From contig CAVWLW010000032.1 in assembly GCA_963755715.1 (NCBI GenBank), forward strand, positions 22,564 to 86,563: DNA of 64,000 nucleotides, given 5' to 3'. The translations under genes and the position numbers were made by a program. Under the pieces are notes generated by a model. It had not been told where the DNA came from. It saw only the letters and a program-made list of their open reading frames with translations, and did not search any database. Positions 13,291 through 61,709 of this stretch are shown here, piece after piece (the stretch's first letter is position 1; every line of letters begins with the position of its first letter). Source of the stretch: an uncultured delta proteobacterium. GTDB taxonomy: Bacteria > Desulfobacterota > Binatia > UBA9968.

Positions 13291-13367
13291 ATAGAAGTCG
13301 ATTCATAGTTGACAGGACGATAACCCTCGCCTTTTCAAACGGGGTGTGCGCGAGAGGTAATTTCAGA

Positions 13368-15039
13368 ATGACTGCGGAATTTACTCCCGAAGAACAAGCG
13401 CGCCTTGCGCCGTTTTTTACCAATCTCGATCGTTCGACGTTCGGCTTGAAATTGCCCCAGGAGGTCGCCGGCGCCTTGTTCTCGCGCTACAGCCGCTCGA
13501 CGAAAAGTCTGCGGCGAACTTTCCTCGATGAATTTCTCGGCGATCCGACGCTTGGATTAAGCGATCTCCTTTCCGGACAAGCCGAGCCCGCAGCCGACAG
13601 CACGGCATTGAAAAAAGCGCGAGCGTTTTACGAGCGCGTGTTGGTCGGTTACGGCGACGATTCGGTCGCGCAGTTGGGCGGCGCTCATCTGGCCTGCGAA
13701 AATATTTCCAACGTCGCCGCCAAACTGCTCGAAGACGCGCGCATCGGCATCGCGCCGCTGGAAAAATCGACGCGCTATGTGCGCTTCGATCAGAAGGACG
13801 CGGCCGGGAATTATCTCTTCTACCGCGAGCCCAAGATCATGGCGTCGCGCCACCGCGACGCTTATCTCGAAGTCATGAATCTGCTCTTCGACACTTACTC
13901 GCGGCAGATGGAGCCGATGCTGGCGTCGATTGCCAAGGCGCTGCCCATCGAGCAAGTGGAGGTGCGCGATCCGAGCAGCGGTAAATCCCTGAGTTACAGC
14001 GAAGCGCAGAAAGATGATCGACTGCGGCGCTGGGCGGAGACCGCCTATCGCGCCACCGTGCGCGCCCATGCGTGCGACGTGCTGCGCAGTTATCTGCCGG
14101 CTGCGACCTTGACCAACGTCGGCATGTTCGGCGTCGGCCAGGCGTTCGAATATCTAATCAGCAAATTCTACTCGCATGAGCTGAGCGAAGCGCAGGAACT
14201 TGGCCGCGCGATGCACGGCGAGCTGAATCAGCTCATTCCGTCGTTCGTCAAGCGCGCGCAGTTGAATGAGTATCTCGTTGGCACGACGGCGGCGGCAAAG
14301 GTGCTGGCGGCAAAGGCCGTTAATGTTTCACCGTGCGACGCCAAAGAACCGGTGACGCTGATCGACTACGACGCCCAAGCCGAAGAGAAAACCATCGCGG
14401 CGATTCTGTACTCGCACGCGCGTCAGCCGTTGATGCAGCTGCGCGAGATCGCCGCCAAGATGAGCGATGAAGATCGTCGCAAGATTCTCAAAGAGTTTTT
14501 TAGCAAACGCCGCCACCGCCGCGACAAACTCAGCCGCGCTTTCGAGAACGTTTATTACACCTTCGATATCCTCGGCAATCTCGGCCTCTATCGCGATCTG
14601 CACCGCCATAGAATTCTTACCCAGGAGCGCCAGGACTTCACCACCGTGCACGGCTACGACACGCCGCCGGAGATCGAAGAGGCGGGTTTCAAGAGCGAGT
14701 TCGACGATTGCATGAAGCGCGCGGCGGATTTGTACGAGCGGATTTACGCCGATCTGCCGAGCGAAGCGCAGTACGTCGTGCCGTTCGCCTACAAGATCCG
14801 CTGGTACATGAAGATGAATCTGCGCGAAGCGCTGCACATGTGCGAGCTGCGCACGATGCCGCAAGGTCATCCCGGACTATCGTTTCATCTGCCAGGAGAT
14901 GTGGCGCAGGATTCAGGAAGTTCATCCAGCGTTGGCGGAGTGCGGCAAGTTTATCGATTGGAAAAAATATCGGTTGGGACGGTTGCAATCAGAAATGCGG
15001 ACGGAGTTTAAGAAATCGGCGTTGAAAAAGGGAGAATAG
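13368..15039 (+). CDS. thyX: Long-form flavin-dependent thymidylate synthase (ThyX-like, tandem ThyX-type domains), C-terminal frameshift at about 14877
   Basis: The C-terminal domain carries ThyX-like motifs (…LYRDLHRHRILTQERQDF… and …YKIRWYMKMNLREALHMCELRTMPQGHP-DYRFICQEMW…). The N-terminal half is a degenerate second copy (…STRYVRF…). The annotated frame drifts after GHP. The family-consistent continuation (DYRFICQEMWRRIQEVHPALAECGKFIDWKKYRLGRLQSEMRTEFKK…*) runs in another frame to 15039. Confidence 0.6.
14871..15010 (+). repeat. thyX 3'-end direct repeat, copy 1 (native gene end)
   Basis: About 140 bp, near-identical to 16361-16500 apart from a 1-nt indel and a few substitutions. Confidence 0.8.
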
Positions 15040-15261
15040 ACCAACCGGTGAAGTTGCAAGACAGTAAATGCCAATGCAACGTGCCCATTCTGTTTTGCGC
15101 CCCTGAAGGCTGATGGTTTCTGGGCCTGAGTGGGCAATTTCGCAGGCAGCGTCTGCGAAATCCAATTTACGTTGCGGTCAATACGAGTGTTTGTTCCAAG
15201 CCTGCGTTACCATAATAGGATTCTATGTTTTCACAAAAATATCTGCTTAGAAACTTTATTG

Positions 15262-15292
15262 TTGCGCATTTGCGCAATTGAGCAAACATGCG
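15262..15292. promoter_or_regulatory. Palindromic operator-like site upstream of the ArsR gene
   Basis: gTTGCGCAtTTGCGCAAttgagcaaacatgcg contains the perfect palindrome TTGCGCAA. The 23-nt core ttgcgcaattgagcaaacatgcg is repeated exactly at 15616-15638. Confidence 0.5.
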
Positions 15293-15604
15293 GTAAAGGG
15301 CGGCATGGACGAAAAGGTCTATTGCCAGTCGCGTCTTTGCCGCCTCATGGGTAACCCGATCGCTTTCGCCGTCGTCGATGCGCTCAGTCAGAATAAAGAA
15401 CTAACCCCGAGCGAGATCGCGCACGCCGTTGGCCGCAGCGTGTCGCGAGTGAGCCACGTCTTGGCGTCGTTACGGTTGGCAGAGGTCGTCCGTTATGACA
15501 CCGACGGGCGACAGGCGCGCTACCGCTTGAAACATCCTCGGGAAACTCGGGACCTTCTGAAGGCCCTCGCATCATTCATCGACTTGTCCTCGGCGTTTCA
15601 GTGA
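15278..15604 (+). CDS. ArsR/SmtB-family transcriptional regulator
   Basis: …MGNPIAFAVVDALSQNKELTPSEIAHAVGRSVSRVSHVLASLRLAEVVRYDTDGRQARYRLKH… is a winged HTH. The likely start is the ATG at 15347. Confidence 0.8.
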   Translation: MSKHAVKGGMDEKVYCQSRLCRLMGNPIAFAVVDALSQNKELTPSEIAHAVGRSVSRVSHVLASLRLAEVVRYDTDGRQARYRLKHPRETRDLLKALASFIDLSSAFQ

Positions 15605-15609
15605 CATTT

Positions 15610-15640
15610 GCGGACTTGCGCAATTGAGCAAACATGCGTG
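15610..15640. promoter_or_regulatory. Second copy of the ArsR operator-like palindrome, just downstream of the regulator gene
   Basis: cggacTTGCGCAAttgagcaaacatgcgtg, an exact 23-nt repeat of the upstream site. Confidence 0.45.
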
Positions 15641-16000
15641 TTCCCGGTGGGAGGAGCAGCAAGAGAATCTCCACGCACGAACGAACTGCAAACTGTAGAA
15701 ATCAAAACTCAGTGTGTTCTTGAACGTAAGTCCGGTGACTATGATGCCTTAGCCGAGCCGGTGGCGTCTACGTCGGTATCTCGCCCATAGCCCGGCGACC
15801 GGGTTTTCACGCTACCCGAGGTCGTTCAAGGAACAACCGTGAGCACCGCGCAACCGTCAACCGCAAAGTCCTGGAATGCAGAATCGTGCATTGGCCAACA
15901 GCAGCACCGCGATTGTCTTTGATCCACGTCCCAGAGGCGGCCATAGAGCCACTCTCGTTTTGGCTTGGCGGACGGTCCGGCGAATGGTAATTTCTATGCG

Positions 16001-16321
16001 ATGAAAACGAGTATTGATCACGCCGGCAGATTGTTGATACCTAAGGAAATTCGTCGGAAGTCCGGCATCAAGCCAGGAATGCCGCTTGAGGTGCGTTGGG
16101 AAAAAGGTGCCATCGCCATTACTCCGGCTCCATTACCAGTGAAGCTGCGAAGGCGAGACCGACTGCTGGTAGCGATTCGGCGCAAGAATGGCCCATCTCT
16201 TTCCACCAAGACCGTCAACTTAACCCGCAAGGCACAGCGCAAAGATTTTTGGCGACTTGTCGACCGTGCCCACAAAAGAGGGGGAAAAGAAAGGGTTTAC
16301 CAAGCTCGACGATCTACCTGA
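16001..16321 (+). CDS. AbrB/MazE/SpoVT-family DNA-binding protein (antitoxin-like, no cognate toxin seen)
   Basis: MKTSIDHAGRLLIPKEIRRKSGIKPGMPLEVRWEKGAIAI is a swapped-hairpin barrel motif. Confidence 0.6.
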   Translation: MKTSIDHAGRLLIPKEIRRKSGIKPGMPLEVRWEKGAIAITPAPLPVKLRRRDRLLVAIRRKNGPSLSTKTVNLTRKAQRKDFWRLVDRAHKRGGKERVYQARRST

Positions 16322-16360
16322 GTAAGAATCGCAGCCCAAAAGACGCCGCCGTCGGTCACC

Positions 16361-16500
16361 CCGACTATCGTTTCATCTGCCAGGAGATGTGGCGCAGGAT
16401 GCAGGAAGTCCATCCAGCGTTGGCGGAGTGCGGCAAGTTTATCGATTGGAAAAAATATCGGTTGGGGCGATTACAGTCAGAAATGCGGACGGAGTTTAAG
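16361..16500 (+). repeat. thyX 3'-end direct repeat, copy 2
   Basis: Near-identical to 14871-15010. Encodes …HPDYRFICQEMWRRMQEVHPALAECGKFIDWKKYRLGRLQSEMRTEFK in frame. Confidence 0.8.
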
Positions 16501-16657
16501 AGGTCAACAATTGAGAATAAAGCATAGTTGAGCGGTAGTTATGAAGGTTGCAATATTCTCGTTGCTCGGTGAGTTGTGGACCCGGTAGGGGGATTGGATT
16601 GTTTATTTGTCCAGGCCTGACCTTGGCGACCTGACCGAAGGGGAAAATCATGACAAA

Positions 16658-17401
16658 TCAGCTCTTGATCTTGCCCAGAATGTGAAGGATCTGAAGTCTG
16701 AGTGGTTTGGGAAAGGTAAGCTGACCGGCCTGGAACCTGCCAAAGCAGAAGTTAAAAATTGATAGGAAATCGTGACGCAAGGTTTGTGAAGTGTGGTGTT
16801 GATGGAGGGCGCGCAGCGCCGGGCCATGGCAATTCCGGACTTTGACTGCGCTCCCACACGGACAGGTGTGATGGCCACGATAACCCCACTCGAAAAGGAA
16901 AATTATGACGGCCAGCGCCACCAATTCATCGGCCAGGTGCAGCGTGTCAATGTAGTGTTGGACGATTCCCTCCTGCCCGTGCGCCTGTTCAGCGAAAGGA
17001 TGCTGACCATGCTGTTTCCAATAGCAGTAACCGTACAAATAGGGAATGACCAGCCGGTTTACAAAACCGAGCAGTGAAGGTTGTTCGAAGAAAATCCGTC
17101 GTTCCTCCACTGGGACGGCCAGACAAAGCGACCCGTCACTATAAATGTGTGGATAACTGCGCTCGATTCTGCCCGCGGTCTCTCTTACCCGCGGCAACAT
17201 GTCTGGAAAGACAGGGGGGATGCGCAATTCGATCTCGAACTTATCCGTAACCGTTTCGAGTCCGTCGGCCGATGCTTCGAACGGCAGGCTTCCAGAGAGC
17301 AACGTTTCATGTTCCAGTTCGGTAAGGTTCGTGAGGCCCCGATAAATTTCCATTAGCTCGGCGAGCTGCCTCGTCATCTCCTCGGTCACCCGGCCCTCCA
17401 A
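16658..17401 (-). CDS. Stand-alone E2 (UBC-fold) ubiquitin-conjugating-like enzyme with a C-terminal SEC-C zinc finger (Cap2-short-like)
   Basis: UBC core …IELRIPPVFPDMLPRVRE…ERSYPHIYSDGSLCLAVPVEE is an HPN-like motif plus a catalytic Cys. The C-terminal HHTCPCGSAVKVRNCHGP matches the SecA-type SEC-C metal-binding motif. The start overlaps the upstream NTase by 16 nt. Confidence 0.65.
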   Translation of the reverse strand: MEGRVTEEMTRQLAELMEIYRGLTNLTELEHETLLSGSLPFEASADGLETVTDKFEIELRIPPVFPDMLPRVRETAGRIERSYPHIYSDGSLCLAVPVEERRIFFEQPSLLGFVNRLVIPYLYGYCYWKQHGQHPFAEQAHGQEGIVQHYIDTLHLADELVALAVIIFLFEWGYRGHHTCPCGSAVKVRNCHGPALRALHQHHTSQTLRHDFLSIFNFCFGRFQAGQLTFPKPLRLQILHILGKIKS

Positions 17402-18590
17402 GGCTTGGCGGCGCCTGTGATGTGGATGCGAGGGGGACTGTCGATCAGGGTTTCAGTCGGAACGACGATCTCAAAATTCTTCGAGACGACCGTCGCACCC
17501 AAAGCGCTGGATAAGTGTTTCTTCAGCTGGCTCGGATTGGCTTCTCTCAGGATCTCAATAACGTCTTTCTGCAAGGCCCCCAACCATAAGAAGAAGGCGC
17601 GAGCGCGGGCGTGGCTATCCTCGTGCCAGCGGTCGGCAAAATTTTCTGCGGGGTTAACAGGGTTTCCGATATACCATTTCCCGTCCGGTGTTCTCTTGAT
17701 CAGTCCCATCGACGAGAGAGAACGGTCAATTGCCTTACCCTCAATGAGGCCCGCGTGTGCACCAAGTTTTTCGACAATACCGCATAGCGCCGAGTAGACA
17801 TCCGTTTCATTCCCGTATAAATGCGCCGACAACGTCGTGATGATGATTGAAATCGGCGCGTATATACAAGGCGCTCTTGGTGATTGAAGCGCGAGTCCAG
17901 GTAGCGTTTCATGATCTGGATTGCGCGTTGCAGCGGTGTGCGTACCAATTGGTCGGGAACTTTGTCGATACTTTCGTAAATGTATGGGATTTGCCGCTGG
18001 ATGACCCGCTTGTTCGAACACGACCTGCTCAAATGCCGCGGCATTTTTCCAGTCGAACCAGCTTCCGTAGCCTCTGGGATTGCTTACAGACCAGATATAG
18101 GAGGAATCCTTCTTGTTCGTAATTGCGATCGATGTGTCCGCATTATCGCGGAGATCAGGAACTCCGGGCAGAATGTCCAGGTGAAAGCCGACACCGTCCT
18201 GCTCGGCGTATTCCAGCGTCCAGCACCGCCGGCCTTCTGCGTCAAGCGTTTTCAGCGTAAGTCCCGTGTTCGCGGAGCCTGTTGCCGACCATGGAGTTGA
18301 CCAACTGTGGATCGGTCCGCTCTTTTGCAGGGGTATTTCGCAGACGAGGTCGATGTCGTAGCTTGCCTCCAAGCCATCTCGGATGGCCTCACTACCGTTC
18401 CCAGCCGGAAAAGAACCCTGTCACGATAAGATGCTCAACTCACCGGAGCGGCCAGGATGTTCCCGTCCTCCAGCCATGCACCAACTGTGTTGTACCGGTC
18501 CACCGCGTCCTGATATTTGCCGGGCGGGATATCAATCTCGGCGGCGACCTGCTCAAGAAAACGCGAATACTTTCTTAAATCGATCGTCAT
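17386..18590 (-). pseudogene. CD-NTase/SMODS-like pol-beta nucleotidyltransferase (cGAS/DncV-like), disrupted in all three frames by stops at 18421-18437
   Basis: The N-terminal helical piece is MTIDLRKYSRFLEQVAAEIDIPPGKYQDAVDRYNTVGAWLEDGNILAAPVS*. The remainder begins with the NTase signature QGSFPAGNGSEAIRDGLEASYDIDLV (GS…DxD), then …GFHLDILPGVPD (third acidic strand) and a helical C-domain ending …AAKPWRAG*. Confidence 0.55.
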
Positions 18591-18616
18591 AATGTTAACC
18601 TCGCACTCTATTGATC

Positions 18617-19654
18617 TTAAGACTTAGTTGCTGTGTCCAGCACATAGACGGGTTCAAATGCCTCGGCCGGCTCCTTAAGAACGCCAGATCGAGCGCAGGG
18701 GTGGCGGTCGCGAGCCAATGAATACCCAAGGCCCTTGAGGTCCTGAATTAATCGCCAGTCGTCCATCTTATATGTGTTGTAGGGGACGATATGGTTTATA
18801 CGGTGTATGGCCGTGCGCTCATGTTCGTGGCCGGTGGCGAGCTTTGCGATACCCATGGCCCCGTGGGACTGCCCGTCCATGAAAAGCTTTACGAGCTTCG
18901 TGCCGAGCGTTCCGATCCCAGCCGATTTCGGAACGGCTAGGTTTCTTCAAGGCAACCGAGGCTCAGGATGTGCAGGGAATCCCGTGACAGCCGAGGAGCG
19001 TCACGGCCTCGACAACGGCGAGATCGATCGGATTGTTCGCCCAAATGCCGCCATCCAAGAGCCCAACACCGTGCTCTGTAATGTGTTGTGGAAAATATGT
19101 CGGTGCCGCGGCGGTCGCGAGCGCGATGTCAACGGCGAACGACTTGTAATCGTTTCTGAGGCGCGGGTGATGCGCCGTCTTGTAGATATACACAGATTGG
19201 GCAACGGGGTTCAGCGGGGATGACAAGTCGGGTTTTCGCGTCACCGAGCCTTTTTCGCCGAGCACATCATGGAGAACGGTGCGCAGAGGTGCTGGGTCAT
19301 GCTTCCTCCGATACACCCAGCGGAGCGCGCGCAGATTTCGGCAAAGATAGTCGGCCACCGGGCGGTCGCCACCGAAAATCTCCGGGCCACGTTGTTCGTA
19401 AAGGTCCAGGAGATAAGAGAGGCCGAAAGGTTCATATTCAAGACCAATAGCGATGATTCCGCCGGTTGAGGTCCCTGCGATCAGATCGAAATAGGAGACG
19501 ATCGGGCGATTGAGATGTTGTTCGAGAGCGGCTAGAAAGGCCGCAGGGAATGTCTGAGAATGCCGCCGCCGTCGATGCACAGTATGCGGCGTTTTGCGGG
19601 CTCACCGTCGTTTTCAATTCCACTTAACTGCACCGATTTTCTGCTTCTCACCAC
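18617..19654 (-). pseudogene. Patatin-like phospholipase (CapV-like effector), at least two frameshifts
   Basis: N-terminus …KRRILCIDGGG (oxyanion motif), then a frameshift. Next frame has …FPAAFLAALEQHL…DLIAGTSTGGIIA (GxSxG) …LLDGGIWANNP (catalytic Asp). The C-terminal third continues in a further frame (18617..18955). Confidence 0.65.
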
Positions 19655-19759
19655 CTGAAGTTTGCGGCTAGGCCTCACTTGTGCAATCATGTTTCAGAGA
19701 TGATACAATCCGTCGAATCGAATGTCAAACAGGTTTTCACATATGAAACGGAGGCCCCA

Positions 19760-20125
19760 TGTCCAAGCTAACCTTGCAAATTCTCGGCAGGAGGTTGGCA
19801 GAAAAGCGAAAGTCACGAGGCATTAGAGAGGTCGCCAAGAAATCGGTGTTAGTCCGGCGACATTGTCCGAATTGAGCGAGGCTATGTCCCTGATATAGAA
19901 ACATTCGGTAAGGTTTGCCGGTGGATGGACGTCGATCCCGGTGAGATCTTAGGAGTAAAGCCGAAGGTGGCTAGTAAACCGAAAGCCGCTGTTCACTTTA
20001 AGAAGGATCAAACTTTGCAAATCGAAACTGCACAAGCTCTCGCTCAAATGATTCTCGCAGCCCAGCGCGCCATGATGGCTTCTGAGGGACAAGAGAATAG
20101 GCCGCTGTGTTGGTCCGGGGTTTAA
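19760..20125 (+). pseudogene. XRE-family HTH regulator (Cro/C1-type), frameshifted
   Basis: MSKLTLQILGRRLAEKRKSRGIREVAK | EIGVSPATLSELERGYVPDIETFGKVCRWMDVDPGEIL… The HTH is split by a 1-nt indel at about 19845. It lies divergent from the patatin gene, and the spacer has TGTTTCA/TGAAACA inverted repeats. Confidence 0.5.
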
Positions 20126-20165
20126 AAGCTGGTGTGAAAATGTCTCCGTTCACCTGCGAAAGGAC

Positions 20166-20711
20166 TTGGGGCTTATACCTAGCGCACCTCTAGACGTGAA
20201 AGCCTTGGCGGAGTGGCTGCATATAGAAATATGGACTCCTCACCAAATTCCTGGGCTTGAGTCGAAATGGACGCATGTACTTCTTAAGAAAGATCCCGAT
20301 GCCTGGTCGGCAGTCACATTAGCCATAAACTCCAAGAATTTGATTATTTTGAACTCTTCTCATTCTAAAGCACGTCAAGCAAGTGACCTGACGCACGAAC
20401 TATCTCATATCTTGATAGGCCACGAGGCTGGTCGGGTAGATATCTCACCGGACGGGTTGTTGATGCTGAACACTTACAATAGAGACCAGGAGGATGAAGC
20501 AAATTGGATGGCGGGGTGCTTGCTCTTGCCAAGAGAAGCCTTGGCGGTTGCTATAAAGCAACAGGTCGACTTCGAGATTACAGCAAAAAAATACGGAGTG
20601 AACCGTGAGATGCTACGTTGGCGGCTTAACGTAACCGGCGTGCAACGTCAGTTTGCACGAGGGCATAACAGGGCTCTGGGGTCTAACTTCCTAGGTCCCG
20701 ACGCTGATTAA
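20166..20711 (+). CDS. ImmA/IrrE-family metallopeptidase
   Basis: HEXXH-type motif (LTHELSHILIGHE). Sits next to an XRE regulator in the low-GC segment (about 42% GC, against about 62% for the window). Confidence 0.7.
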   Translation: MGLIPSAPLDVKALAEWLHIEIWTPHQIPGLESKWTHVLLKKDPDAWSAVTLAINSKNLIILNSSHSKARQASDLTHELSHILIGHEAGRVDISPDGLLMLNTYNRDQEDEANWMAGCLLLPREALAVAIKQQVDFEITAKKYGVNREMLRWRLNVTGVQRQFARGHNRALGSNFLGPDAD

Positions 20712-20915
20712 CGACGGAGCAGGGCTATTCAGGTAAATGTGGCAATGAAACGTTCTTATCGACTTTTGATAGAGGGCCTGGCTTTTGAATCTCATCATTT
20801 CCAACAATCAAAAAGAAAGATTTGAGACAGCATCGAAAGATTCGACACTAACAGCTACTATAAAGAAATTTTGACCTGAAACGTATTCCCCGTACCGAGA
20901 CCGAGTAGGGACGCC

Positions 20916-21932
20916 ATGACAGTTCGCATTGCCCAGTTCGTGCACGCCACCCACGATGTGGTGGACGAAGCTTTCCTGCGGGAATTTCCTGAAGTCGAGG
21001 CGGTGAAGGCCAATAACCTCGAAGCCCTGTCCGATGCGCTCGCCGGGGCGGAAATCTTCCATGTCTACAATTCCGCCTTTACACCGGAGTTCGCGAAGCT
21101 CGTGCGCGACAAGGGTCGTGCGCTGAAGTGGATTCAGTTCACGACCGTAGGCATCGATGTCGCGCTGAGAGTGGGACTGCCCGACGGCGTTTGGGTCACG
21201 AATTCCGGCGATGTGAGCCAGCGGGTGCTGGCCGGGCACGCCATCGCCCTGATGCTTGGCGTGATGCGGGGATTCCGTAGATTCGAGCCGCTGCGTGCGC
21301 GGCATGATTATGCGCGGCAGAGCTTGCCCCGCTACATGGTCGCGCCCGATGGCGCGCGCATGGTGATCCTCGGCATGGGCCGCATCGGTCAGGACATCGC
21401 GCGCAAGGCCAAGGCATTCGACATGGAGGTGATCTGCGTCACCCGCGCGCCCGCTCCCGCCGTGCCCGAGATCGACCGCGTGGTGCCCCGGGAAAAGGTG
21501 GACGAGGTGCTTCCTACTGCCGACGCGGTAATGATCGCGATGCCGCTCGACGCCGGCACTCAAGGATTTTTAAGCGCGGCAAGAATCGCGCTCATGAAAG
21601 AGACGGCTATCCTGGTAAATATCTCCCGCGGCAAGGTGGTGGACGAAGCCGCTCTGGCCCGCGCCCTCGCCGAAGGCCGCATCATGGGGGCAGGGCTCGA
21701 CGCTTTCGCCAAAGAACCGTTGCCCGCGGATAGTCCGCTCTGGGATCTCCCCAACGTGCTGATGACGCCCCATGTCGGCGGTAACGGCGGGCGCGAATTG
21801 TGGCGGCGGATGAGCGAACTTGTGCGCGACAACACGCGCCGCTATCTTTCGGGTGCGCCGCTCAAACACGTAGTGAGAACACCCGATGGGACGCTTCAAG
21901 GTTTTGAAAACCCGCAGGCTGGCAACTCATAG
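20916..21932 (+). CDS. D-isomer-specific 2-hydroxyacid dehydrogenase family protein
   Basis: NAD-binding VILGMGRIGQDIARKA and catalytic region …NISRGKVVDEAAL…TPHVGG. Confidence 0.85.
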   Translation: MTVRIAQFVHATHDVVDEAFLREFPEVEAVKANNLEALSDALAGAEIFHVYNSAFTPEFAKLVRDKGRALKWIQFTTVGIDVALRVGLPDGVWVTNSGDVSQRVLAGHAIALMLGVMRGFRRFEPLRARHDYARQSLPRYMVAPDGARMVILGMGRIGQDIARKAKAFDMEVICVTRAPAPAVPEIDRVVPREKVDEVLPTADAVMIAMPLDAGTQGFLSAARIALMKETAILVNISRGKVVDEAALARALAEGRIMGAGLDAFAKEPLPADSPLWDLPNVLMTPHVGGNGGRELWRRMSELVRDNTRRYLSGAPLKHVVRTPDGTLQGFENPQAGNS

Positions 21933-22162
21933 TGGGTGAATCTGAGGTCGAGAGTTTTATGCGAAAGACCAAAACCACTCGCTACGACGTTGCCGAACAC
22001 CTGCGAACACCGGAGGAAATGGCGGCATATCTTGAGGCTTGCCTCGATGAGGCAAAAGGAGATGCCGCCTTTATAGCCAAAGCTCTCGGCGATATTGCAC
22101 GCGCCCGCGGCATGACGCAGGTGGCGCGTGACACCTTTCGGTTTCAAGCATTGGCACGCTGA
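21932..22162 (+). CDS. Putative addiction-module antidote HTH protein (TIGR02684-like), orphan
   Basis: …TRYDVAEHLRTPEEMAAYLEACLDEAKGDAAFIAKALGDIARARGMTQVAR…. No RelE/ParE-type partner lies adjacent. Confidence 0.5.
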   Translation: MGESEVESFMRKTKTTRYDVAEHLRTPEEMAAYLEACLDEAKGDAAFIAKALGDIARARGMTQVARDTFRFQALAR

Positions 22163-22215
22163 GGCGGCTGAGAGGTAATTAAGAGTCGTGCCGGAGCGTT
22201 GCACTGCTGCCTGGC

Positions 22216-22905
22216 GTGGGAATGGAAAGGGGAAACGAAAACATGATCGACGAAAGCTATAACGCAATCAAAAACGATTTCATCATGGCGCTTCGGATCA
22301 TTTACCGTGAGGGACTGAGCGACGCGTTTGCTCATCTCAGCCTGCGCAGCAACGAGGGCGATGAAATGATGTTCATGCCGCGCAAGAGTCCGGCTATAGT
22401 CAAGAGCGAGGAATTGTTTTTTGTCGACTTCGATAAATCCGTGCCGCAGTCTTCCTTGCACCAGGCGATCTATAAAGCCCGTCCCGATGTCAAAGCGGTT
22501 TTTCACTTCCACTCGCCGGCGGTGGTTCTGCTGAGCGTCGTCGGCCAAACCATTCGGCCGATGCATAACTACAGCGCGATTTTCTACGAAGGCGTGCCGC
22601 TCTATACCGGAACGGGGCAGGTCGAATCGCCGGCGCGGGCCGGGGAAATGGCCAAGTTGCTCGGCAACGCCAAGGCGTTGATGCTGCGCGGACACGGCGC
22701 CGTAGTCGTCGGACAGTCGATTCGTGAGGTTTGCATCTTGGCGCTTTTCTTAGAGGAGTCGGCGCGGCTGCAAACCGAAGCGATAAAACTGGGTACGCCG
22801 ATGTTTATGGAGCGCGACGAAGCCGAGAAGATCGCCAAGCGAACCTTCAAGCCGACCTCCGTCGAACGTGCTTGGGACCATTTTGTCGCGAAATACGCCG
22901 ATTGA
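22216..22905 (+). CDS. Class II aldolase/adducin-domain protein
   Basis: …AFAHLSLRSNEGDEMMFMPRKSP…FHFHSPAVVLLSV…MLRGHGAVVVGQSIREV…. Confidence 0.75.
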   Translation: MGMERGNENMIDESYNAIKNDFIMALRIIYREGLSDAFAHLSLRSNEGDEMMFMPRKSPAIVKSEELFFVDFDKSVPQSSLHQAIYKARPDVKAVFHFHSPAVVLLSVVGQTIRPMHNYSAIFYEGVPLYTGTGQVESPARAGEMAKLLGNAKALMLRGHGAVVVGQSIREVCILALFLEESARLQTEAIKLGTPMFMERDEAEKIAKRTFKPTSVERAWDHFVAKYAD

Positions 22906-22974
22906 TTTTGTTGTTCGGCCGGGCAGCCCGATCTCATCGACTGGAAATGGTCGGTTAATATCTCTCTCGGGGAT

Positions 22975-23060
22975 GGTTGAAAATCCCTCGCCTTCAGGCG
23001 AGTGAGAGTTCGTCATGCCGGCGAACGCCGACATCCAGGTTCGTTTTGGAAAACTATACC
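22975..23060. repeat. Palindromic repeat element related to the one at 13195-13290
   Basis: CCTCGCCTTcAGGCGAG hairpin, then cGTCATGCCGGcgaacgCCGaCATCCAGG. Confidence 0.35.
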
Positions 23061-23191
23061 GGCGCGCCGGCAATTACGAAAAGGCTAAGACGCAGCTCGC
23101 CAACGGCGTTGCAATGATGCGCGAGATGGAGATGGGACTGTGGCTGCAAAAGGCTGAGGCTGAGTTGAGGGAACTAGAATCATTCCGTTAA
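23030..23191 (+). pseudogene. C-terminal TPR-like fragment of a larger regulatory protein (remnant)
   Basis: …FGKLYRRAGNYEKAKTQLANGVAMMREMEMGLWLQKAEAELRELESFR*. The frame closes immediately upstream inside the repeat element. Confidence 0.3.
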
Positions 23192-23261
23192 CCAGACACC
23201 CTGTTGAAATTCTGCTTGGCCTAAAAATGAAGCGCAATGTGCGGGAAGTCGGTTCGAGCTG

Positions 23262-23340
23262 GAATGCGGCGAATTTATTGACTCGAAAAACTACCGGCTT
23301 GGGGCGGTTGCAATCCGAGATGCGCACGGAATACAAGAAC
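23262..23340 (+). repeat. thyX 3'-end direct repeat, copy 3 (degenerate, about 75% identical)
   Basis: Encodes …NYRLGRLQSEMRTEYKN*, compared with …KKYRLGRLQSEMRTEFKK in copies 1 and 2. Confidence 0.6.
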
Positions 23341-23346
23341 TAAAAT

Positions 23347-24363
23347 TTGAATAACAAAGGGACAAATATGAAATGCCGGCTTACCTTGATGGCCGCCTTG
23401 ACCGTATCGCTCTGCTTCATTCGCGCTTCGATGGCGCCGGCCCAAGTTGCGAGAATCAAAGTCGGCTACTCCTCGATCGGTGTCGGCCAGTCGCTCGTCT
23501 GGGTTGCTAAAGAGGCGGGGCTTTTCAAGGAGAACGGGCTCGATGTGCAGCTTATTTTTATCGGCAGCTCGAGTATCCTGACTCAAGCCGTGATCGCCGG
23601 CGACGTGCCGATCGCGATCATGTCCGGCACGGCGGCGATCGGCTCGCAATTGGCGGGATCGGACGTTGTCATGGCTGCGAGCACAAAAAAAGATCCAGCC
23701 CAGGCATTTCTGGTCACCGCAAAAGGAATTTCACAACCCGCGCAGCTCAAGGGGAAAAGACTGGCGGTGAGCCGGCTCGGCGCATCTTCGGATTTTATCC
23801 TCAGGTTGATTCTCAAAAAGATCGGCTTAGTGCCGGACAAAGACGTGGCGATTGTGCAGATCGGCTCTTCGCCGGTCAGAATGGCCGCCTTGGTCAATGG
23901 CGCCGCCGATGGCACGGCGCTGACCTTCGAAGAGATGATGGTGGCCAAGAAAATGGGTTTTAACGTCATGCTCAACCTCGTGGAGTTGGGTGTCGAATCG
24001 CTAAACAGCGACGTCGTGACGACGCGAAAATTTATGCGGGAGTCGCGGGAAACCGTCCAACGGTTCATCAAGGGCATGATCAAAGGAGTGAGTTTCTTCG
24101 CCGCCAATAAAAAATTTTCCATGGATGTTATTGCCCGCTACACCAAGAGCAACGACACGGAAAAGATCGAATATGGCTATGACTATGCGGCAAAAATCTT
24201 TCTCAGGAAGCCTTACCCGCCGATCAAGGGAATCCAACTCGCCCTCGAAGAGATCGGCGAAAGAACTCCCGCGGCGAAGACAGCGAGTCCGGAGCAGTTT
24301 ATCGACATCTCTATCGTAAAAGAGCTCGATCAGAGCGGCTTTATCGATGCGCTTTACAAATAG
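23347..24363 (+). CDS. ABC-type substrate-binding protein, NMT1/THI5 (SsuA/TauA)-like, with signal peptide
   Basis: Signal peptide followed by IKVGYSSIGVGQSLVWVAKEAGLFKENGLDVQLIFIGSS…. Confidence 0.8.
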   Translation: MNNKGTNMKCRLTLMAALTVSLCFIRASMAPAQVARIKVGYSSIGVGQSLVWVAKEAGLFKENGLDVQLIFIGSSSILTQAVIAGDVPIAIMSGTAAIGSQLAGSDVVMAASTKKDPAQAFLVTAKGISQPAQLKGKRLAVSRLGASSDFILRLILKKIGLVPDKDVAIVQIGSSPVRMAALVNGAADGTALTFEEMMVAKKMGFNVMLNLVELGVESLNSDVVTTRKFMRESRETVQRFIKGMIKGVSFFAANKKFSMDVIARYTKSNDTEKIEYGYDYAAKIFLRKPYPPIKGIQLALEEIGERTPAAKTASPEQFIDISIVKELDQSGFIDALYK

Positions 24364-53725: not shown

Positions 53726-55269
53726 CGCGAGAGATGCCCATGTTCATCAAGCGAGATCTGTCGATCAGCCGGCGTGAATTTGCTCGCGCCGTGGTCGGCG
53801 CTGCGGCCGGTATCGCGGGGAGCAGCAAGCTGGGCTGGGCGGCGGCGCCACGCGACCGCATTGTCGTGGCGATGAGCGTCGGCATCGATAGCGTCAACCC
53901 TTATGCTCACAGCGATTCGCCTCTCTACGGCTTATGGGGCCATATCATGGAATCGCTGGTGGACACGGATTACGAGCGCAAGAATTTTTCGCCCGAGCTG
54001 GCGACGGCTTGGAGCCCCAAAGGCAATGAATGGACTTTCCAACTGCGCAAGGGCGTGACGTTTCACGACGGCTCGCCGTTTACGGCCAAGGATGTGGCCT
54101 ATTCCTACGAGCGTTTGGTTAAAGACAAACAGAGTCTCCAGGCGCCAAATCTGAGCGATATTAAAGAAGTCAAAGCGCCGGATGATTACACTTTGGTCAT
54201 CGTCACGCAGCGCCCTAAAGTTGCGCTGCTCGGCTTGCTCTACAATCGCGTGATCCTGAGCCAAAAGGCGGCCGAGCGTTTAGGCGAGAAGCTCGACGAT
54301 CAGGCGATCGGCACGGGTCCTTACCGTTTTGCCGGATGGCAGCGCGGCGCGCATTTCACCATGCGCCGGAACGATAAATATTGGGGCGCGCCGCCAAGCG
54401 TTCGTGAAATCGTCTGGCGGCCGGTCAAGGAAGACGCTGCCAGAATCGCGGCGATCGAATCGGGACAGGCGGATATCATCAATCAAGTGCCGGTTCACGA
54501 AATCGACCGGCTTAAACGCAATCCGCGAGTGCGTGTCGAGATGCTGCGCGGCTTGAGAGTGCTTTATATTGGTTTGAACCCGGCGCACAAACCGTTCGAC
54601 AACAAGCTGGTCCGCCAAGCTTTCAATTACGCGGTCGACCAGGAAGCGATTATCAAGCATGTGCACGAAAATCAGGTTTATGGCCTCAAAGGGTTATTGG
54701 GCCCGCAGATGCTCGGTTACGACGATCAACTGGAAAATTATCCGTACGATCCCGAGAAGGCAAAAAAACTGCTAGCCGAGGCTGGCTATCCGAACGGCCT
54801 CACCGTGGATTTCAACACTCATGCCGGCCGTTATCAGAAAGACCGTGAAACCGCCCAAGCGATCGCCAGCCAAATGGCCAAGGCGGGTATCAAGACCGAT
54901 ATCAAGGCGCCGGAATACGCGATCTACGAAGAAGAATTCAACAACGGCAAGTACGGCATGTACATGTTCGGCCGGGGCTCGATTACGGATCCGGAAGCTT
55001 TCTACATCCGTTATTTTCGCTCGGGGCGGGGCAAGCGGCTGTCGTATAAGAATCCTGACTTCGACCGGATTTTCGACCAGCAGAGCGAGACTTTCGATTC
55101 GGCCAAGCGGGAGGAAATGCTGCGCCAATTGGGCAAGATCTTGCACGAGGATTGCCCGGTCATTCCGCTTTACAACACGGCCGATGTCTATGCGGTGCGC
55201 CGAGAAGTCATCTGGAAGCCGCGGCCCGATGAGAAAATTCCCGTCATCAATGCCCGGTTCCAAAGCTAG
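53722..55269 (+). CDS. ABC transporter substrate-binding protein, family 5 (peptide/opine/nickel type), Tat signal
   Basis: …RREFARAVVGAAAGIAGS… Tat leader and an SBP_bac_5 core. Confidence 0.85.
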   Translation: MTREMPMFIKRDLSISRREFARAVVGAAAGIAGSSKLGWAAAPRDRIVVAMSVGIDSVNPYAHSDSPLYGLWGHIMESLVDTDYERKNFSPELATAWSPKGNEWTFQLRKGVTFHDGSPFTAKDVAYSYERLVKDKQSLQAPNLSDIKEVKAPDDYTLVIVTQRPKVALLGLLYNRVILSQKAAERLGEKLDDQAIGTGPYRFAGWQRGAHFTMRRNDKYWGAPPSVREIVWRPVKEDAARIAAIESGQADIINQVPVHEIDRLKRNPRVRVEMLRGLRVLYIGLNPAHKPFDNKLVRQAFNYAVDQEAIIKHVHENQVYGLKGLLGPQMLGYDDQLENYPYDPEKAKKLLAEAGYPNGLTVDFNTHAGRYQKDRETAQAIASQMAKAGIKTDIKAPEYAIYEEEFNNGKYGMYMFGRGSITDPEAFYIRYFRSGRGKRLSYKNPDFDRIFDQQSETFDSAKREEMLRQLGKILHEDCPVIPLYNTADVYAVRREVIWKPRPDEKIPVINARFQS

Positions 55270-55272
55270 CAC

Positions 55273-56571
55273 TTGGGGGAAAGAGTGGACAAGAAAGAAA
55301 TCATCGACAAGCAGAAGAAATATCTTTTTAGCTGCGTCGCGACTTACTATGACGAGCCGCTGGTCGTCGATCATGCCAAAGATCAATATGTCTATGACGC
55401 CGACGGCAAGGAATTCTTGGACTTTTTCGGCGGCATCCTGACCGTCAGCGTCGGCCATTGCAACGAGAAAGTAACTAAGGCGATCGACGAGCAGACCCAC
55501 AAAGTGCAGCACATGTCGACGCTCTACGCCAACGAGCCGCAGGTGCTTCTGGCGGAGAAGCTGGCGCAGATCACACCGGGACGGCTGGAAAAATCTTTTT
55601 TCACCAACAGCGGCACAGAGGCCAACGAGACGGCGGTCTTACTGGCACAGATTCACACCCAGTGCCAGGACGTCATCACGCTGCGCCACAGCTACAGCGG
55701 CCGTTCTTATCTCGCGTTGAGCCTCTCGGCGCAGTCGAGCTGGCGGCTGATGCCCAACGTCGTGCCCGGCGTGCATCACATCGCCAACGCTTACTGCTAT
55801 CGCTGCCCCTTCGGCTTGACTTATCCCAGTTGCGATTTGAAGTGCGCTAAAGACGCCGAAGAAGCGATTCAAACCATGACTTCGCAGGGACGAGTCGCTG
55901 CGTTTCTCGCCGAGCCGATTCAAGGCGTCGGCGGATTCATCGTGCCGCCCAAAGAATATTTCAAAGAGATCGTCGGCATCATTCGAAAATACGGCGGCCT
56001 GTTCATCTGCGACGAAGTGCAGACCGGCTGGGGCCGCACCGGCGGCAAGATGTTCGGTATCGAACACTGGGGCGTCGATCCCGACATCATGACTTTCGCC
56101 AAAGGCATGGCCAATGGCGTGCCCATCGGCGCGACCATCGCCACGCCGGAGGTCGCCGACAGCATGAAGGGCAACACGATTTCGACTTTCGGCGGCAATC
56201 CGGTCACTTGCACCGCGGCGCATGCGACGATCCAAGTGATCGAAGAGGAAAATCTCGTCGAAAACGCGCGCGTGCTCGGCAACCGTTTGCGCGACGGCTT
56301 AAACGCGTTGAAAGACAAATATCCGATCATCGGCGACGTGCGCGGCATGGGGCTGATGCAGGGCATGGAGTTGGTCGGCGAGCAAAAGAAACCCGACATT
56401 GAAAACACCAAACGAGTGATGGAATTGACCAAGAAGCATGGACTGTTGGTCGGCAAGGGCGGCACTTACGGCAATGTTTTGCGCGTCGCGCCGCCGCTCA
56501 ACACGAACAAGGATCAGATCGACCAGGCGCTGAAAGTTTTGGATCAGTCTTTCGGTCAGTTAGGTCAATGA
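55273..56571 (+). CDS. Class III pyridoxal-phosphate-dependent aminotransferase
   Basis: …FTNSGTEANE…DEVQTGWGRTG… AT-III signatures. Confidence 0.85.
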   Translation: MGERVDKKEIIDKQKKYLFSCVATYYDEPLVVDHAKDQYVYDADGKEFLDFFGGILTVSVGHCNEKVTKAIDEQTHKVQHMSTLYANEPQVLLAEKLAQITPGRLEKSFFTNSGTEANETAVLLAQIHTQCQDVITLRHSYSGRSYLALSLSAQSSWRLMPNVVPGVHHIANAYCYRCPFGLTYPSCDLKCAKDAEEAIQTMTSQGRVAAFLAEPIQGVGGFIVPPKEYFKEIVGIIRKYGGLFICDEVQTGWGRTGGKMFGIEHWGVDPDIMTFAKGMANGVPIGATIATPEVADSMKGNTISTFGGNPVTCTAAHATIQVIEEENLVENARVLGNRLRDGLNALKDKYPIIGDVRGMGLMQGMELVGEQKKPDIENTKRVMELTKKHGLLVGKGGTYGNVLRVAPPLNTNKDQIDQALKVLDQSFGQLGQ

Positions 56572-56643
56572 AGACGCTGCTCGGTCTCCGGTTATCATTA
56601 AAGTCATGATTGCAGCATTGCTCCTGATTAAACTGCCAACCGC

Positions 56644-57642
56644 ATGAACAAGCTTAGTCGCAGGATCATTGGCGCGATTCCGGTCCTCCTGGGTATCTCT
56701 TTTCTCATTTTCCTACTGATGCATATCGCGCCGGGCGATCCGGTGAGTCTCTTGCTCGGCGACGACGCCACGCCTGCGGATATCGAGCGGACGCGCCACG
56801 AATGGGGCTTGGATCGACCGCTGATCGTGCAGTATTGGGACTTTCTCACTCGGGCGGTGACCGGCGACTTCGGCAAGTCGCTCAAGTTCAACGAGCCGGT
56901 GACAAAATTGGTCAGCGAGCGCTTGCCGGCGACGCTTGAACTGGCGTTTGCCGCCTTGTGCGTCGCGATCCTGATCGCGGTGCCGCTCGGCGTTTATTCG
57001 GCGATCCGGCACAATTCGCTGCTCGATCACGCCGGCATGAGCGTCGCGCTCATCGGCGTCTCCTTGCCCAATTTTTGGCTCGGTATCATGTTGATATATT
57101 TTCTCGGCGGCCAGCTGAATTGGCTGCCGGTCGCCGGCCGCATCGAATACGGCATTGAAGTCAGATCCATCACCGGGCTCTATTTACTCGACAGTGTGCT
57201 GACCGGTAATTACGCCGCCTTTTGGAGTGCGTTGCAGCACTTGTTGATGCCGGCTTTCACCCTGGGATCGGCGCTGGCGGCGATCGTGACGCGCATCTCG
57301 CGCTCGAGCGTGCTCGAAGTCATGCGCCAGGATTACGTAACGACGGCGCGGGCCAAGGGCTTGAGCGAGTCGACGGTAATCTGGCGCCACATTCTGCGTA
57401 ACGCGCTGATCACGATCGTGACGATCCTCGGTCTTCAGTTGGGCGCATTGCTGAGCGGCTCGGTGATCACCGAAACGGTCTTTTCCTTTCCAGGCATCGG
57501 CGACCTGTTGATCCAGTCGATCTCGGCGCGGGACTATAAGCTCACCCAGGTATTGATTCTCATGTTTGCCGTCACCTATTTCGTCGTCAATCTATTGGTC
57601 GATCTGCTCTACAGTTGGATCGACCCGAGGATCAGGTTTTAA
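56644..57642 (+). CDS. ABC transporter permease (DppB/OppB-like)
   Basis: Six TM helices with the binding-protein-dependent transport signature. Confidence 0.9.
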   Translation: MNKLSRRIIGAIPVLLGISFLIFLLMHIAPGDPVSLLLGDDATPADIERTRHEWGLDRPLIVQYWDFLTRAVTGDFGKSLKFNEPVTKLVSERLPATLELAFAALCVAILIAVPLGVYSAIRHNSLLDHAGMSVALIGVSLPNFWLGIMLIYFLGGQLNWLPVAGRIEYGIEVRSITGLYLLDSVLTGNYAAFWSALQHLLMPAFTLGSALAAIVTRISRSSVLEVMRQDYVTTARAKGLSESTVIWRHILRNALITIVTILGLQLGALLSGSVITETVFSFPGIGDLLIQSISARDYKLTQVLILMFAVTYFVVNLLVDLLYSWIDPRIRF

Positions 57643-58481
57643 TGTTTTCGCTGCGCTATTTAAAAATCTGGGTGGGCGGCGCAATCTTGCTGTTGCTCTG
57701 CGTGTGCGGTCTGGCGGCGCCGTTGTTGGCGCCGCGCGATCCGCAGGCGCAGACCTTGGAGGATCGCCTGCGGCCGCCGCGCTGGACCGAAAACGGTTCG
57801 TCCGCCTACCTGCTTGGCACGGATAATCTCGGCCGAGATATGCTCAGTCGGATTATTTACGGCTCGCGGATTTCCCTGATGGTCGGCGCCGCCACCGTGA
57901 TCTTCGCCGGCTTTGTCGGCTGCACGCTCGGCGCAGTCGCGGGCTATTTCGGCCACACGACCGATGAAGTGGTCAGCAAAGTCTCGGAAATATTTCTTGC
58001 CTTTCCATTTTTGTTGATCGCGATCGCGATCATGGCATTCCTCGGCCAAGGAGTCGGCAATTTGATCATGGCGCTGATGCTCAGCCGATGGGTGCAATAC
58101 TGCCGCGTCGTGCGCGGCGAGGTGTTGTCAATCCGAGAGCGGGATTTCGTCACCGCCGCCAAAGCGTTGGGCGCCAAAGACTGGTATGTGCTCTTCCGCC
58201 ACGTGGTGCCGAATACGCTGGCCAGCGTGACGGTGATCGCGACCTTCGGCATGGCGATCGTTATCATCACCGAAGCGAGCCTGAGCTTTCTCGGGCTCGG
58301 CGTGCCGGTCCATATCCCGACTTGGGGGTCGATGCTGAGCGAGGGGCGAAGCTACATCAACCGCGCGCCGTGGCTCACAATATTTCCAGGGCTGGCGATT
58401 TTTATCACCGTATTCGGCATCAACCTATTGGGCGACGGCCTGCGCGATATTCTCGATCCGAAGTTGCGCCGGCAGAGGTAG
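57642..58481 (+). CDS. ABC transporter permease (DppC/OppC-like)
   Basis: TAATG overlap with the preceding permease and a DppC-type fold. Confidence 0.9.
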   Translation: MFSLRYLKIWVGGAILLLLCVCGLAAPLLAPRDPQAQTLEDRLRPPRWTENGSSAYLLGTDNLGRDMLSRIIYGSRISLMVGAATVIFAGFVGCTLGAVAGYFGHTTDEVVSKVSEIFLAFPFLLIAIAIMAFLGQGVGNLIMALMLSRWVQYCRVVRGEVLSIRERDFVTAAKALGAKDWYVLFRHVVPNTLASVTVIATFGMAIVIITEASLSFLGLGVPVHIPTWGSMLSEGRSYINRAPWLTIFPGLAIFITVFGINLLGDGLRDILDPKLRRQR

Positions 58482-58544
58482 TTGGACAACGGAGCGGATG
58501 CGGAGCGGAGAAATTCGATTGGATATTCGATATAGGAGATTTCT

Positions 58545-60077: not shown

Positions 60078-60138
60078 GTCATCGATGGCCGCTTAGGCGC
60101 AGAAAACTTTTTTTGCGAATCTCGAAGGCTCGGGAGGC

Positions 60139-61674: not shown

Positions 61675-61709
61675 CGGAAACGACACAGATAAAGTTCACG
61701 CCAGGTCGA

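Follow-up and report, generated by a model that had tools for sequence, protein, structure and literature searches.

Through what events can the 3′ end of a single housekeeping gene come to stand three times in a row on one piece of DNA, with unrelated genes between the copies? The question is raised by thyX, the gene of a thymidylate synthase dependent on flavin adenine dinucleotide (FAD), in a stretch of 64,000 nucleotides (nt) from an uncultured delta proteobacterium (Desulfobacterota; Binatia; UBA9968; GenBank assembly GCA_963755715.1, contig CAVWLW010000032.1, positions 22,564 to 86,563 of the forward strand). We call this whole stretch the window and count positions from its first letter. 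A preliminary description of the window, made from its letters only, took the repeated thyX ends for a classic footprint of site-specific integration. Our comparison with related loci leads to a different answer. The 3′ end of thyX in Binatia is probably a recombination hotspot, where incoming DNA enters by homologous recombination inside the conserved part of thyX and no site-specific recombinase takes part.

Three ends of one gene

We took 122 thyX 3′ ends that are resident in related loci, made an nhmmer profile of them and ran it on the whole 64-kb window. Exactly three significant matches were obtained, all on the plus strand: the resident gene itself (14707-15041, E 2e-107), a second copy (16354-16527, E 7e-48) and a third one (23223-23348, E 8e-16). 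The fourth-ranked match reached only E 0.012, and a repeat search found no further copy in all 64 kb. Thus the tripling of the thyX end, as first reported from the bare sequence, is confirmed.

Aligned without gaps, copies 1 and 2 share 95% identity (14871-15013 versus 16359-16501). If one 1-nt indel is allowed, their homology begins at positions 14865 and 16354, which places the left edge of copy 2 at 173-174 nt before its stop codon. The left end of copy 2 contains a 37-nt stretch identical to copy 1. Over 49 codons the two copies show six synonymous differences and one non-synonymous difference, whereas the last eight codons, after ...EFK, all differ, seven of them non-synonymously. Such synonymous-biased differences, combined with different tails, indicate that copies 1 and 2 are two alleles of a functional thyX end from different lineages, with no recent internal duplication. 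Tails of this kind are hypervariable in general: more than 60 variants, 8-25 amino acids (aa) long, occur among 120 homologues of 84-98% identity. Copy 3 is only about 75-81% identical, having lost 4 nt at one point and gained 1 nt at another. A stop codon of its own (23341-23343) lies 24 nt upstream of the start codon, at 23368, of the next gene, which encodes a solute-binding protein (SBP).

The resident thyX needs one correction. Its listed open reading frame (ORF), 13344-15011, terminates early because the assembled gene has a 1-nt insertion, an extra C, at 14871-14874, where the window reads CATCCCGGAC and the 98%-identical locus L001 reads CATCCGGAC; the true frame continues to 15039. 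The Pfam Thy1 match stops at profile position 169 of 191. Once repaired, the protein aligns end to end with 556-aa homologues of 85-98% identity, which are named ThyX of Candidatus Binatia. Could the frameshift be a product of the junction? We rejected this idea, as the comparison with L001 reveals a simple extra C. An assembly or polishing error near the repeat is at least as likely, since three genes of the cyclic-oligonucleotide-based antiphage signalling system (CBASS) further downstream have similar one-nucleotide problems: the cyclase at about 18372-18440, the patatin effector at 18880-18963 and the XRE/CapH gene at about 19780-19860. Taken together, these frameshifts suggest either errors of long-read assembly or polishing or real decay of the CBASS.

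Occupied and empty sites in related loci

Is this arrangement peculiar to one genome? The relatives used here comprise 68 genome loci, 80 metagenome loci and two contigs from an exact protein look-up, and copy counts refer to the 145 related loci that have a thyX 3′ end. In six of the genomes (L033, L034, L041, L043, L051 and L058), all from more distant Binatia with a thyX about 70-72% identical, the gene is followed at once by an orthologue of SBP (62-71% identical), the uninterrupted junction that the preliminary description had proposed to look for in relatives. Here the SBP start codon lies 3-10 nt past the thyX stop, and the thyX tail reads ...TEYKKS..*. Because this tail resembles that of copy 3, copy 3 is most simply the ancestral thyX end, probably left in place, and the whole of 15040-23222 has been inserted.

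Elsewhere the site is often occupied. Two to four co-oriented thyX 3′ copies, placed around highly variable cargo, are present at 33 of the 145 loci. None of the 45 extra copies lies on the minus strand, and every copy was found downstream of thyX; the sequence is no dispersed repeat unrelated to this gene. In the closer clade at least 13 classes could be identified for the first neighbour after thyX; at 46 further loci the neighbour could not be assigned. The most instructive comparison is with L001. It is 98% identical to the window as far as 15028 and once more from 20858 onwards; the DNA in between holds a HigA-like gene, a remnant of thyX, a gene for a DNA methyltransferase and one unknown gene in L001, and the ArsR and AbrB genes, copy 2 and the CBASS in the window. 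An old arrangement fixed among relatives, which the preliminary description had considered as an alternative, is not what we see, as the content differs even between flanks of such identity. The empty site, the multi-copy loci and the variable cargo support its other view, that of an insertion hotspot with tandem accretion; the thyX 3′ end of soil Binatia is a site of repeated insertion.

The cassettes of other loci are mainly type II toxin-antitoxin (TA) systems, such as PIN with AbrB, HigB with HigA, Unstab_antitox with ParE, DUF4258 with an MqsA-like protein, and Phd/YefM. Others encode an AAA_14/DUF4143 ATPase, an amidohydrolase, an ABC-type ATPase, restriction-modification (R-M) systems and further genes. 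Many of the cassettes are only 0.7-1.5 kb long. Two loci hold genes of other kinds in the variable region after thyX. L002 has a group II intron reverse transcriptase (RVT_1 and GIIM domains; 15871-17184, minus strand). L015 has genes for a dCTP deaminase-like protein, a 5-hmdU DNA kinase and MazG_C (17965-20712), following an ImmA-like protease; genes of this sort usually belong to phage DNA hypermodification or to defence.

The hotspot also leaves a trace in the assemblies. Contigs end within 300 nt of the thyX stop in 11 of 38 cases (L005, L007, L009, L016, L024, L025, L026, L028, L031, L040 and L045), about two being expected. It is a systematic assembly breakpoint for metagenome-assembled genomes (MAGs) of Binatia.

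Junctions and modes of entry

If cassettes enter at thyX, then we can ask: how constant is the point of entry? The right ends of the remnants reach the variable tail. The left edges are abrupt. Counted from the stop, at least 20 different thyX positions are used, between -62 and about -318, and no motif common to the flanks of these edges was found across the related loci. These edges depend in part on the cargo, since the same junction is reused by the same kind of genes: -231/-238 with HigBA in eight loci, -182 with ParE in five, -139 with the ATPase in three and -195 with VapBC in two. The remnants themselves are mosaic. For example, L140 and L135 agree at 205 of 209 positions from the cargo end to about -75, then at 57 of 78, and beyond this the DNA is unrelated. 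A 60-nt patch of L090 agrees with L107 at 55 of 60 positions, and with its near-twin L135 at only 47 of 57. Divergence between the window and L001 grows toward the thyX 3′ end, from 1-3 to 9-19 mismatches per 250 bp. The abundance of left edges, their abruptness, the lack of a motif and the mosaic remnants do not agree with the reading of the repeats as a site-specific footprint.

The preliminary description recognised no recombinase, and all our searches were negative as well. No recombinase family was detected by Pfam among the 20 main ORFs of the window, and the 119 other stop-free six-frame segments of at least 40 aa in 15011-23346 gave no Pfam match at E 0.1. Tyrosine recombinases, serine recombinases and transposases were all absent from 50 individually scanned neighbour ORFs of relatives; together with a census of 141 further ones, described below, about 190 neighbour ORFs from at least 40 relatives were covered. 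The site-specific reading also lacks a carrier: peptide and pattern scans of viral contigs for the thyX 3′ fragment returned only two 21-nt chance matches, and blastn against phage and plasmid collections returned none. A literature search on thyX as an integration site found nothing relevant.

Several candidates for a dedicated target were tried and rejected. No tRNA, tmRNA or Rfam element was found in the thyX end that could be the true target. DNA folds of the three copies on both strands gave no attC-like single-strand hairpins (z from -1.25 to 0). There is no sign of constraint at the DNA level, the identity of synonymous codons being 0.39-0.60 within the thyX 3′ end and 0.31-0.70 outside it. 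A consensus scan found no promoter in the thyX end that could be the reason for retention of remnants, and this idea stays speculation.

Variable junctions, mosaic remnants and the absence of a recombinase are at odds with one or a few site-specific integrases, and they do fit the homologous recombination that we prefer, in which one thyX end displaces another. The incoming fragment would consist of a donor thyX 3′ end and cargo, and it would replace the end of the recipient thyX, shifting the old end downstream as a non-functional remnant. Between the ancestral stop and the next gene there are only 3-10 nt, so neither gene is damaged if the inserted DNA supplies a thyX end of its own. Each cassette would need a first junction, between its cargo end and some thyX position, to be made just once, by illegitimate joining or by integration of a circularised fragment. 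After that the unit of thyX end, tail, cargo and remnant would have thyX homology on both sides, the remnant serving as the second homology arm. Such a unit could be copied into any sufficiently similar thyX by an ordinary double crossover, or by a single crossover of an excised circle. The expected outcome would be co-oriented arrays with the newest cassette usually beside thyX.

The pattern of displacement is not unique to thyX. In L062 two remnants of a 2-hydroxyacid dehydrogenase 3′ end lie downstream of the intact gene, at 19643-19761 (119 nt, 91% identical) and at 20674-20720 (47 nt, 89%). The nearer one is separated from the gene by some 7 kb of inserted DNA with genes for adenylate/guanylate cyclase-AAA-TPR proteins.

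A number of points weigh against displacement by homologous recombination. That RecA-type recombination is the agent we infer without direct observation, and the same holds for the way each first junction arose. Cargo genes usually stop just 12-35 nt before the remnant; this is tidier than random illegitimate joining predicts, so that later deletion or selection is needed. Within one cargo family the junction may differ, as for the ATPase (L015, L018 and L022) and for DUF4258/MqsA (L120 and L136). Several left edges cluster between -182 and -238, and proximal remnants are not always the least decayed ones (L015 and L018). The Pfam census of 141 representative neighbour ORFs detected no family of integrases or transposases with at least two members, but it conceals families present in only one ORF. 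A regular-expression scan of all loci for the tyrosine-recombinase box motif was negative, with a sensitivity that is unknown. Finally, a recombinase may possibly be encoded elsewhere in the genome, beyond the scanned loci.

How do other explanations survive the same evidence? Old integrative elements, namely islands, prophage relics or relatives of cis-mobilisable elements (CIMEs), are in our opinion an unlikely source. Here a tyrosine or serine integrase would have had its att site in the thyX 3′ end, and it would since have decayed, or an intact element elsewhere would mobilise these elements, whether in trans or in cis. In the textbook, such elements are recognised by direct repeats of a target-gene 3′ end together with a replacement end; relatives have the unoccupied site; and the 37-nt identity at the left end of copy 2 and the loose clustering of left edges also speak for them. 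However, neither a recombinase in or near the element nor a constant crossover core was found, and the former is missing even in degenerate form both from the window and from the neighbour ORFs of relatives. With at least 20 distinct junction positions, many different integrases would be required. The small size of many cassettes, the varying breakpoints inside remnants, the lack of synonymous-site constraint and the lack of any viral, phage or plasmid record with the thyX fragment also count against integrative elements.

An integron-like platform, with an unrecognised or unlinked recombinase and the thyX 3′ fragment as the cassette site, seems to us quite improbable. The arrays are co-oriented, their cassettes are short, often of a single operon and rich in TA genes, a repeat of one kind follows each cassette, and cargo genes end near it. 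Still, no IntI-like gene and no attI lie beside thyX, where the upstream genes are metabolic (FAD-dependent oxidoreductase, methyltransferase and ketoacyl synthase). No significant hairpin of the attC type is formed by the repeat, the junctions vary, and some cargo, such as the CBASS, lies on the opposite strand.

Very improbable, and largely refuted, is an origin within the genome: the thyX 3′ end and the DNA downstream of it would have been duplicated in tandem, and the copies would later have diverged and had their genes replaced. Bacteria often undergo tandem duplications whose endpoints are random, and these would account for both variable left edges and co-orientation. Yet copies 1 and 2 have different tails while the 49 codons upstream differ almost only synonymously, a pattern which indicates that, as they diverged, each still belonged to a functional gene, in a lineage of its own. 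Moreover, the cargo on the two sides of a remnant is unrelated, and the same unit of cassette and junction recurs in different arrays.

An assembly artefact, by which strain haplotypes downstream of thyX were concatenated, hardly deserves belief: several 1-nt frameshifts are typical of long-read assemblies and contigs do break near the stop, but the 33 multi-copy loci, among them short-read contigs and MAGs, stem from a large number of independent studies and assemblers, and older copies have decayed with indels that concatenated haplotypes would not be expected to show.

Cargo of the window

The features of the locus are collected in Table 1. The preliminary description divided the inserted DNA into two segments, one on each side of copy 2. 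This partition is too simple, as the first segment is itself mosaic and the second is composite.

Table 1. Features of the thyX locus in the window
Feature	Position	Strand	Evidence or remark
Resident thyX, two-domain FAD-dependent thymidylate synthase, 556 aa once repaired	13368..15039	+	Pfam Thy1 4e-36
Copy 1, thyX 3′ end in current use	14865..15039	+	Conserved to ...EFK, then 8-codon variable tail KSALKKGE
31-nt element, two copies bracketing arsR	15262-15292 and 15608-15638	+	94% identical
ArsR-type winged helix-turn-helix (HTH) regulator	15305-15604	+	Pfam HTH_5 and others, 1e-5
AbrB/MazE-fold (VapB-like) antitoxin, no toxin gene after it	16001..16321	+	Pfam MazE_antitoxin 2e-5
Copy 2, displaced thyX 3′ end	16354..16527	+	57 codons and stop, frame intact, own tail RSTIENKA
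CBASS operon	16658..19728	-	Promoter-like site 19728-19700 (promoter scan 11 of 12)
CBASS E2-type protein	16658-17401	-	PADLOC 1.5e-71
CBASS cyclase	17386-18372	-	PADLOC 2e-56; N-terminal ~60 aa in another frame (18438-18623)
CBASS patatin phospholipase effector, split	18963-19580 and 18617-18880	-	PADLOC 7e-54 and 1.7e-4; Pfam Patatin 2.5e-16
XRE/CapH-like HTH, at least 2 frameshifts	19760-20125	+	Sequence reading
ImmA/CapP-like metalloprotease	20166-20711	+	Pfam Peptidase_M78 4.6e-16; PADLOC capP 3e-11
Block common to relatives	20858..23222	+	97-98% identical to L001, 90% to L002
D-2-hydroxyacid dehydrogenase	20916-21932	+	Pfam
Truncated HI1420-type antidote	21932-22162	+	Pfam
Class II aldolase	22216-22905	+	Pfam
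Short TPR-like relic	23015-23191	+	Weak TPR match
Copy 3, decayed thyX 3′ end	23223..23348	+	2 indels, tail ...TEYKN*, directly before SBP gene
NMT1/THI5-type SBP, ancestral downstream neighbour of thyX	23368..24363	+	Pfam NMT1 1.6e-26

In the first segment, the 31-nt element contains an 18-bp near-palindrome, TTTGCGCAATTGAGCAAA, which is likely to be the ArsR operator. The element recurs in L001 (8881), L002 (11835/12181), L004 (13897), L005 (3270), L010 (11811), L023 (12764) and L047 (2346/2693), always on the plus strand. It brackets arsR wherever arsR is present and occurs without arsR too; it also marks module boundaries. The ArsR module of the window (15244-15643) is 97-98% identical to positions 11800-12225 of L002, whereas the adjacent intergenic DNA is 29-67% and the thyX ends are 86-89% identical. 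It appears to be a tiny unit that was recently exchanged on its own.

The AbrB-type antitoxin was described earlier as an orphan, and this holds: it stands alone, without the toxin partner of a type II TA pair. A related antitoxin (71-74% identical) is followed by a PIN toxin and then by a thyX remnant in L093, L104 and L075. In the closest full-length matches (L091, L049 and L015) a toxin was not identified.

The CBASS-like operon predicted in the second segment was recovered by PADLOC matches to the cyclase, E2, phospholipase and capP. At 16658-20711 the gene content of a CBASS is present, that is, cyclase and effector with the optional E2 and CapH/CapP. The frames are not intact: splits affect the N-terminus of the cyclase, the effector and the HTH gene. 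The XRE and ImmA genes had been taken for a low-GC module of their own. Their low GC is real, the lowest in the region (0.47-0.51), but they are no separate module: this pair, 19760..20711, lies divergent from the CBASS and is its CapH/CapP-type regulator.

While the CBASS with CapH/CapP is strain-specific, the rest of the second segment, 20858-23222, is common to relatives, with a gene order that is shuffled in other loci. The antidote gene of this block has a deletion of about 80 nt relative to L001 (window 22136-22154 versus L001 12773-12859), so that 76 instead of 99 aa are encoded. The deletion removes the C-terminal HTH_3 part, and no partner toxin is present in the window or in L001. 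The ORF at 23015-23191 is 80% identical to positions 16118-16259 of L062, next to a large cyclase-AAA-TPR gene there, and is probably a relic of an earlier cargo gene.

Under displacement by homologous recombination, the window would record at least two displacements, represented by copies 2 and 3, and further exchanges that left no remnant may have brought the ArsR module and the CBASS with CapH/CapP. Far from this locus, at 54058-63255, the window has a family of tandem paralogues without relation to the thyX array: three to four units that repeat about every 1.6 kb and are 60-81% identical to each other.

Known systems and meaning for Binatia

Which of the known systems is closest to the thyX array? 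Orphan arrays of Rhs/CDI (contact-dependent inhibition) loci have a conserved 5′ part and a hypervariable 3′ tip, followed downstream by co-oriented dissociated 3′ fragments with a core of variable length, and no integrase (PMC2935791). For rhs, such "C-terminal displacement" was proposed to proceed by homologous recombination, possibly via a circular intermediate, and it was limited to close relatives (Jackson et al. 2009, PMC2935791). The thyX array resembles these in its conserved body with an exchangeable tip, in its strings of co-oriented 3′ fragments, which are mosaic and have variable breakpoints, and in the lack of an integrase. In contrast, its anchor is the gene of a housekeeping enzyme and not a polymorphic toxin. 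Its tip is only a tail of 8-25 aa with no known function. The payload is not a displaced toxin domain with an immunity gene; it consists of separate genes for TA, CBASS, R-M, regulators and enzymes.

Arrays of type VI secretion system (T6SS) effector and immunity genes in Vibrio cholerae have also been explained by sequential displacement, with homology-facilitated illegitimate recombination as the proposed mechanism (Kirchberger et al. 2017, PMC5361080). Completed arrays then spread by ordinary homologous recombination, and selection is thought to keep the immunity genes (PMC5361080). In both systems the insertions are anchored in conserved upstream sequence, and the earlier 3′ end and genes are pushed downstream. 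The thyX arrays differ in that they retain thyX fragments and unrelated cassettes, and in that the hotspot spans a class-level lineage.

Three further systems share single traits with the thyX array. In integrative and conjugative elements (ICEs) and islands in the 3′ ends of genes or tRNAs, such as ICESt1 and ICESt3 and the CIMEs without an integrase at the fda 3′ end, the att core is constant and some member of the array encodes a recombinase. The replacement 3′ end, the direct repeats, the tandem arrays, some integrase-less members and the empty site are common to them and to thyX, but the thyX junctions are variable and no recombinase was found in the scanned loci. Chromosomal integrons form long co-oriented arrays of small cassettes enriched in TA genes, each ending in a repeat. 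In the thyX array IntI, attI and attC hairpins are missing, and the repeat is a fragment of a protein-coding gene. The pangenomes of Escherichia coli and Pseudomonas have defence hotspots with variable cargo between core genes, where turnover among close strains proceeds by flanking homologous recombination without markers of mobile elements. To our knowledge, serial remnants of the flanking core gene have not been described at such hotspots.

A bolder reading can be offered only tentatively, and we place it below an even chance. The combination of cargo and a 3′ fragment of an essential gene may be a distinct type of mobile cassette that gets by without an enzyme of its own: the fragment would be its portable second homology arm, host RecA its agent, and TA cargo would hinder its loss. 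If this were true, it would amount to an integron-like platform for gene capture without an integrase, and it may act at other conserved genes of Binatia, as the dehydrogenase remnants of L062 hint.

In practice, the thyX 3′ site is also a frequent assembly breakpoint in Binatia metagenomes. If our main explanation by homologous recombination is correct, the serial co-oriented 3′ remnants of a core gene would be a simple signature of integrase-free hotspots in uncultivated lineages. "C-terminal displacement", so far known from polymorphic toxin loci, would extend to a housekeeping gene with TA and antiphage cargo. Accessory and defence genes could then accumulate and spread as ordered cassette arrays without integrase, transposase or phage, the conserved end of an essential gene being both the sole landing pad and the homology arm that is carried along.

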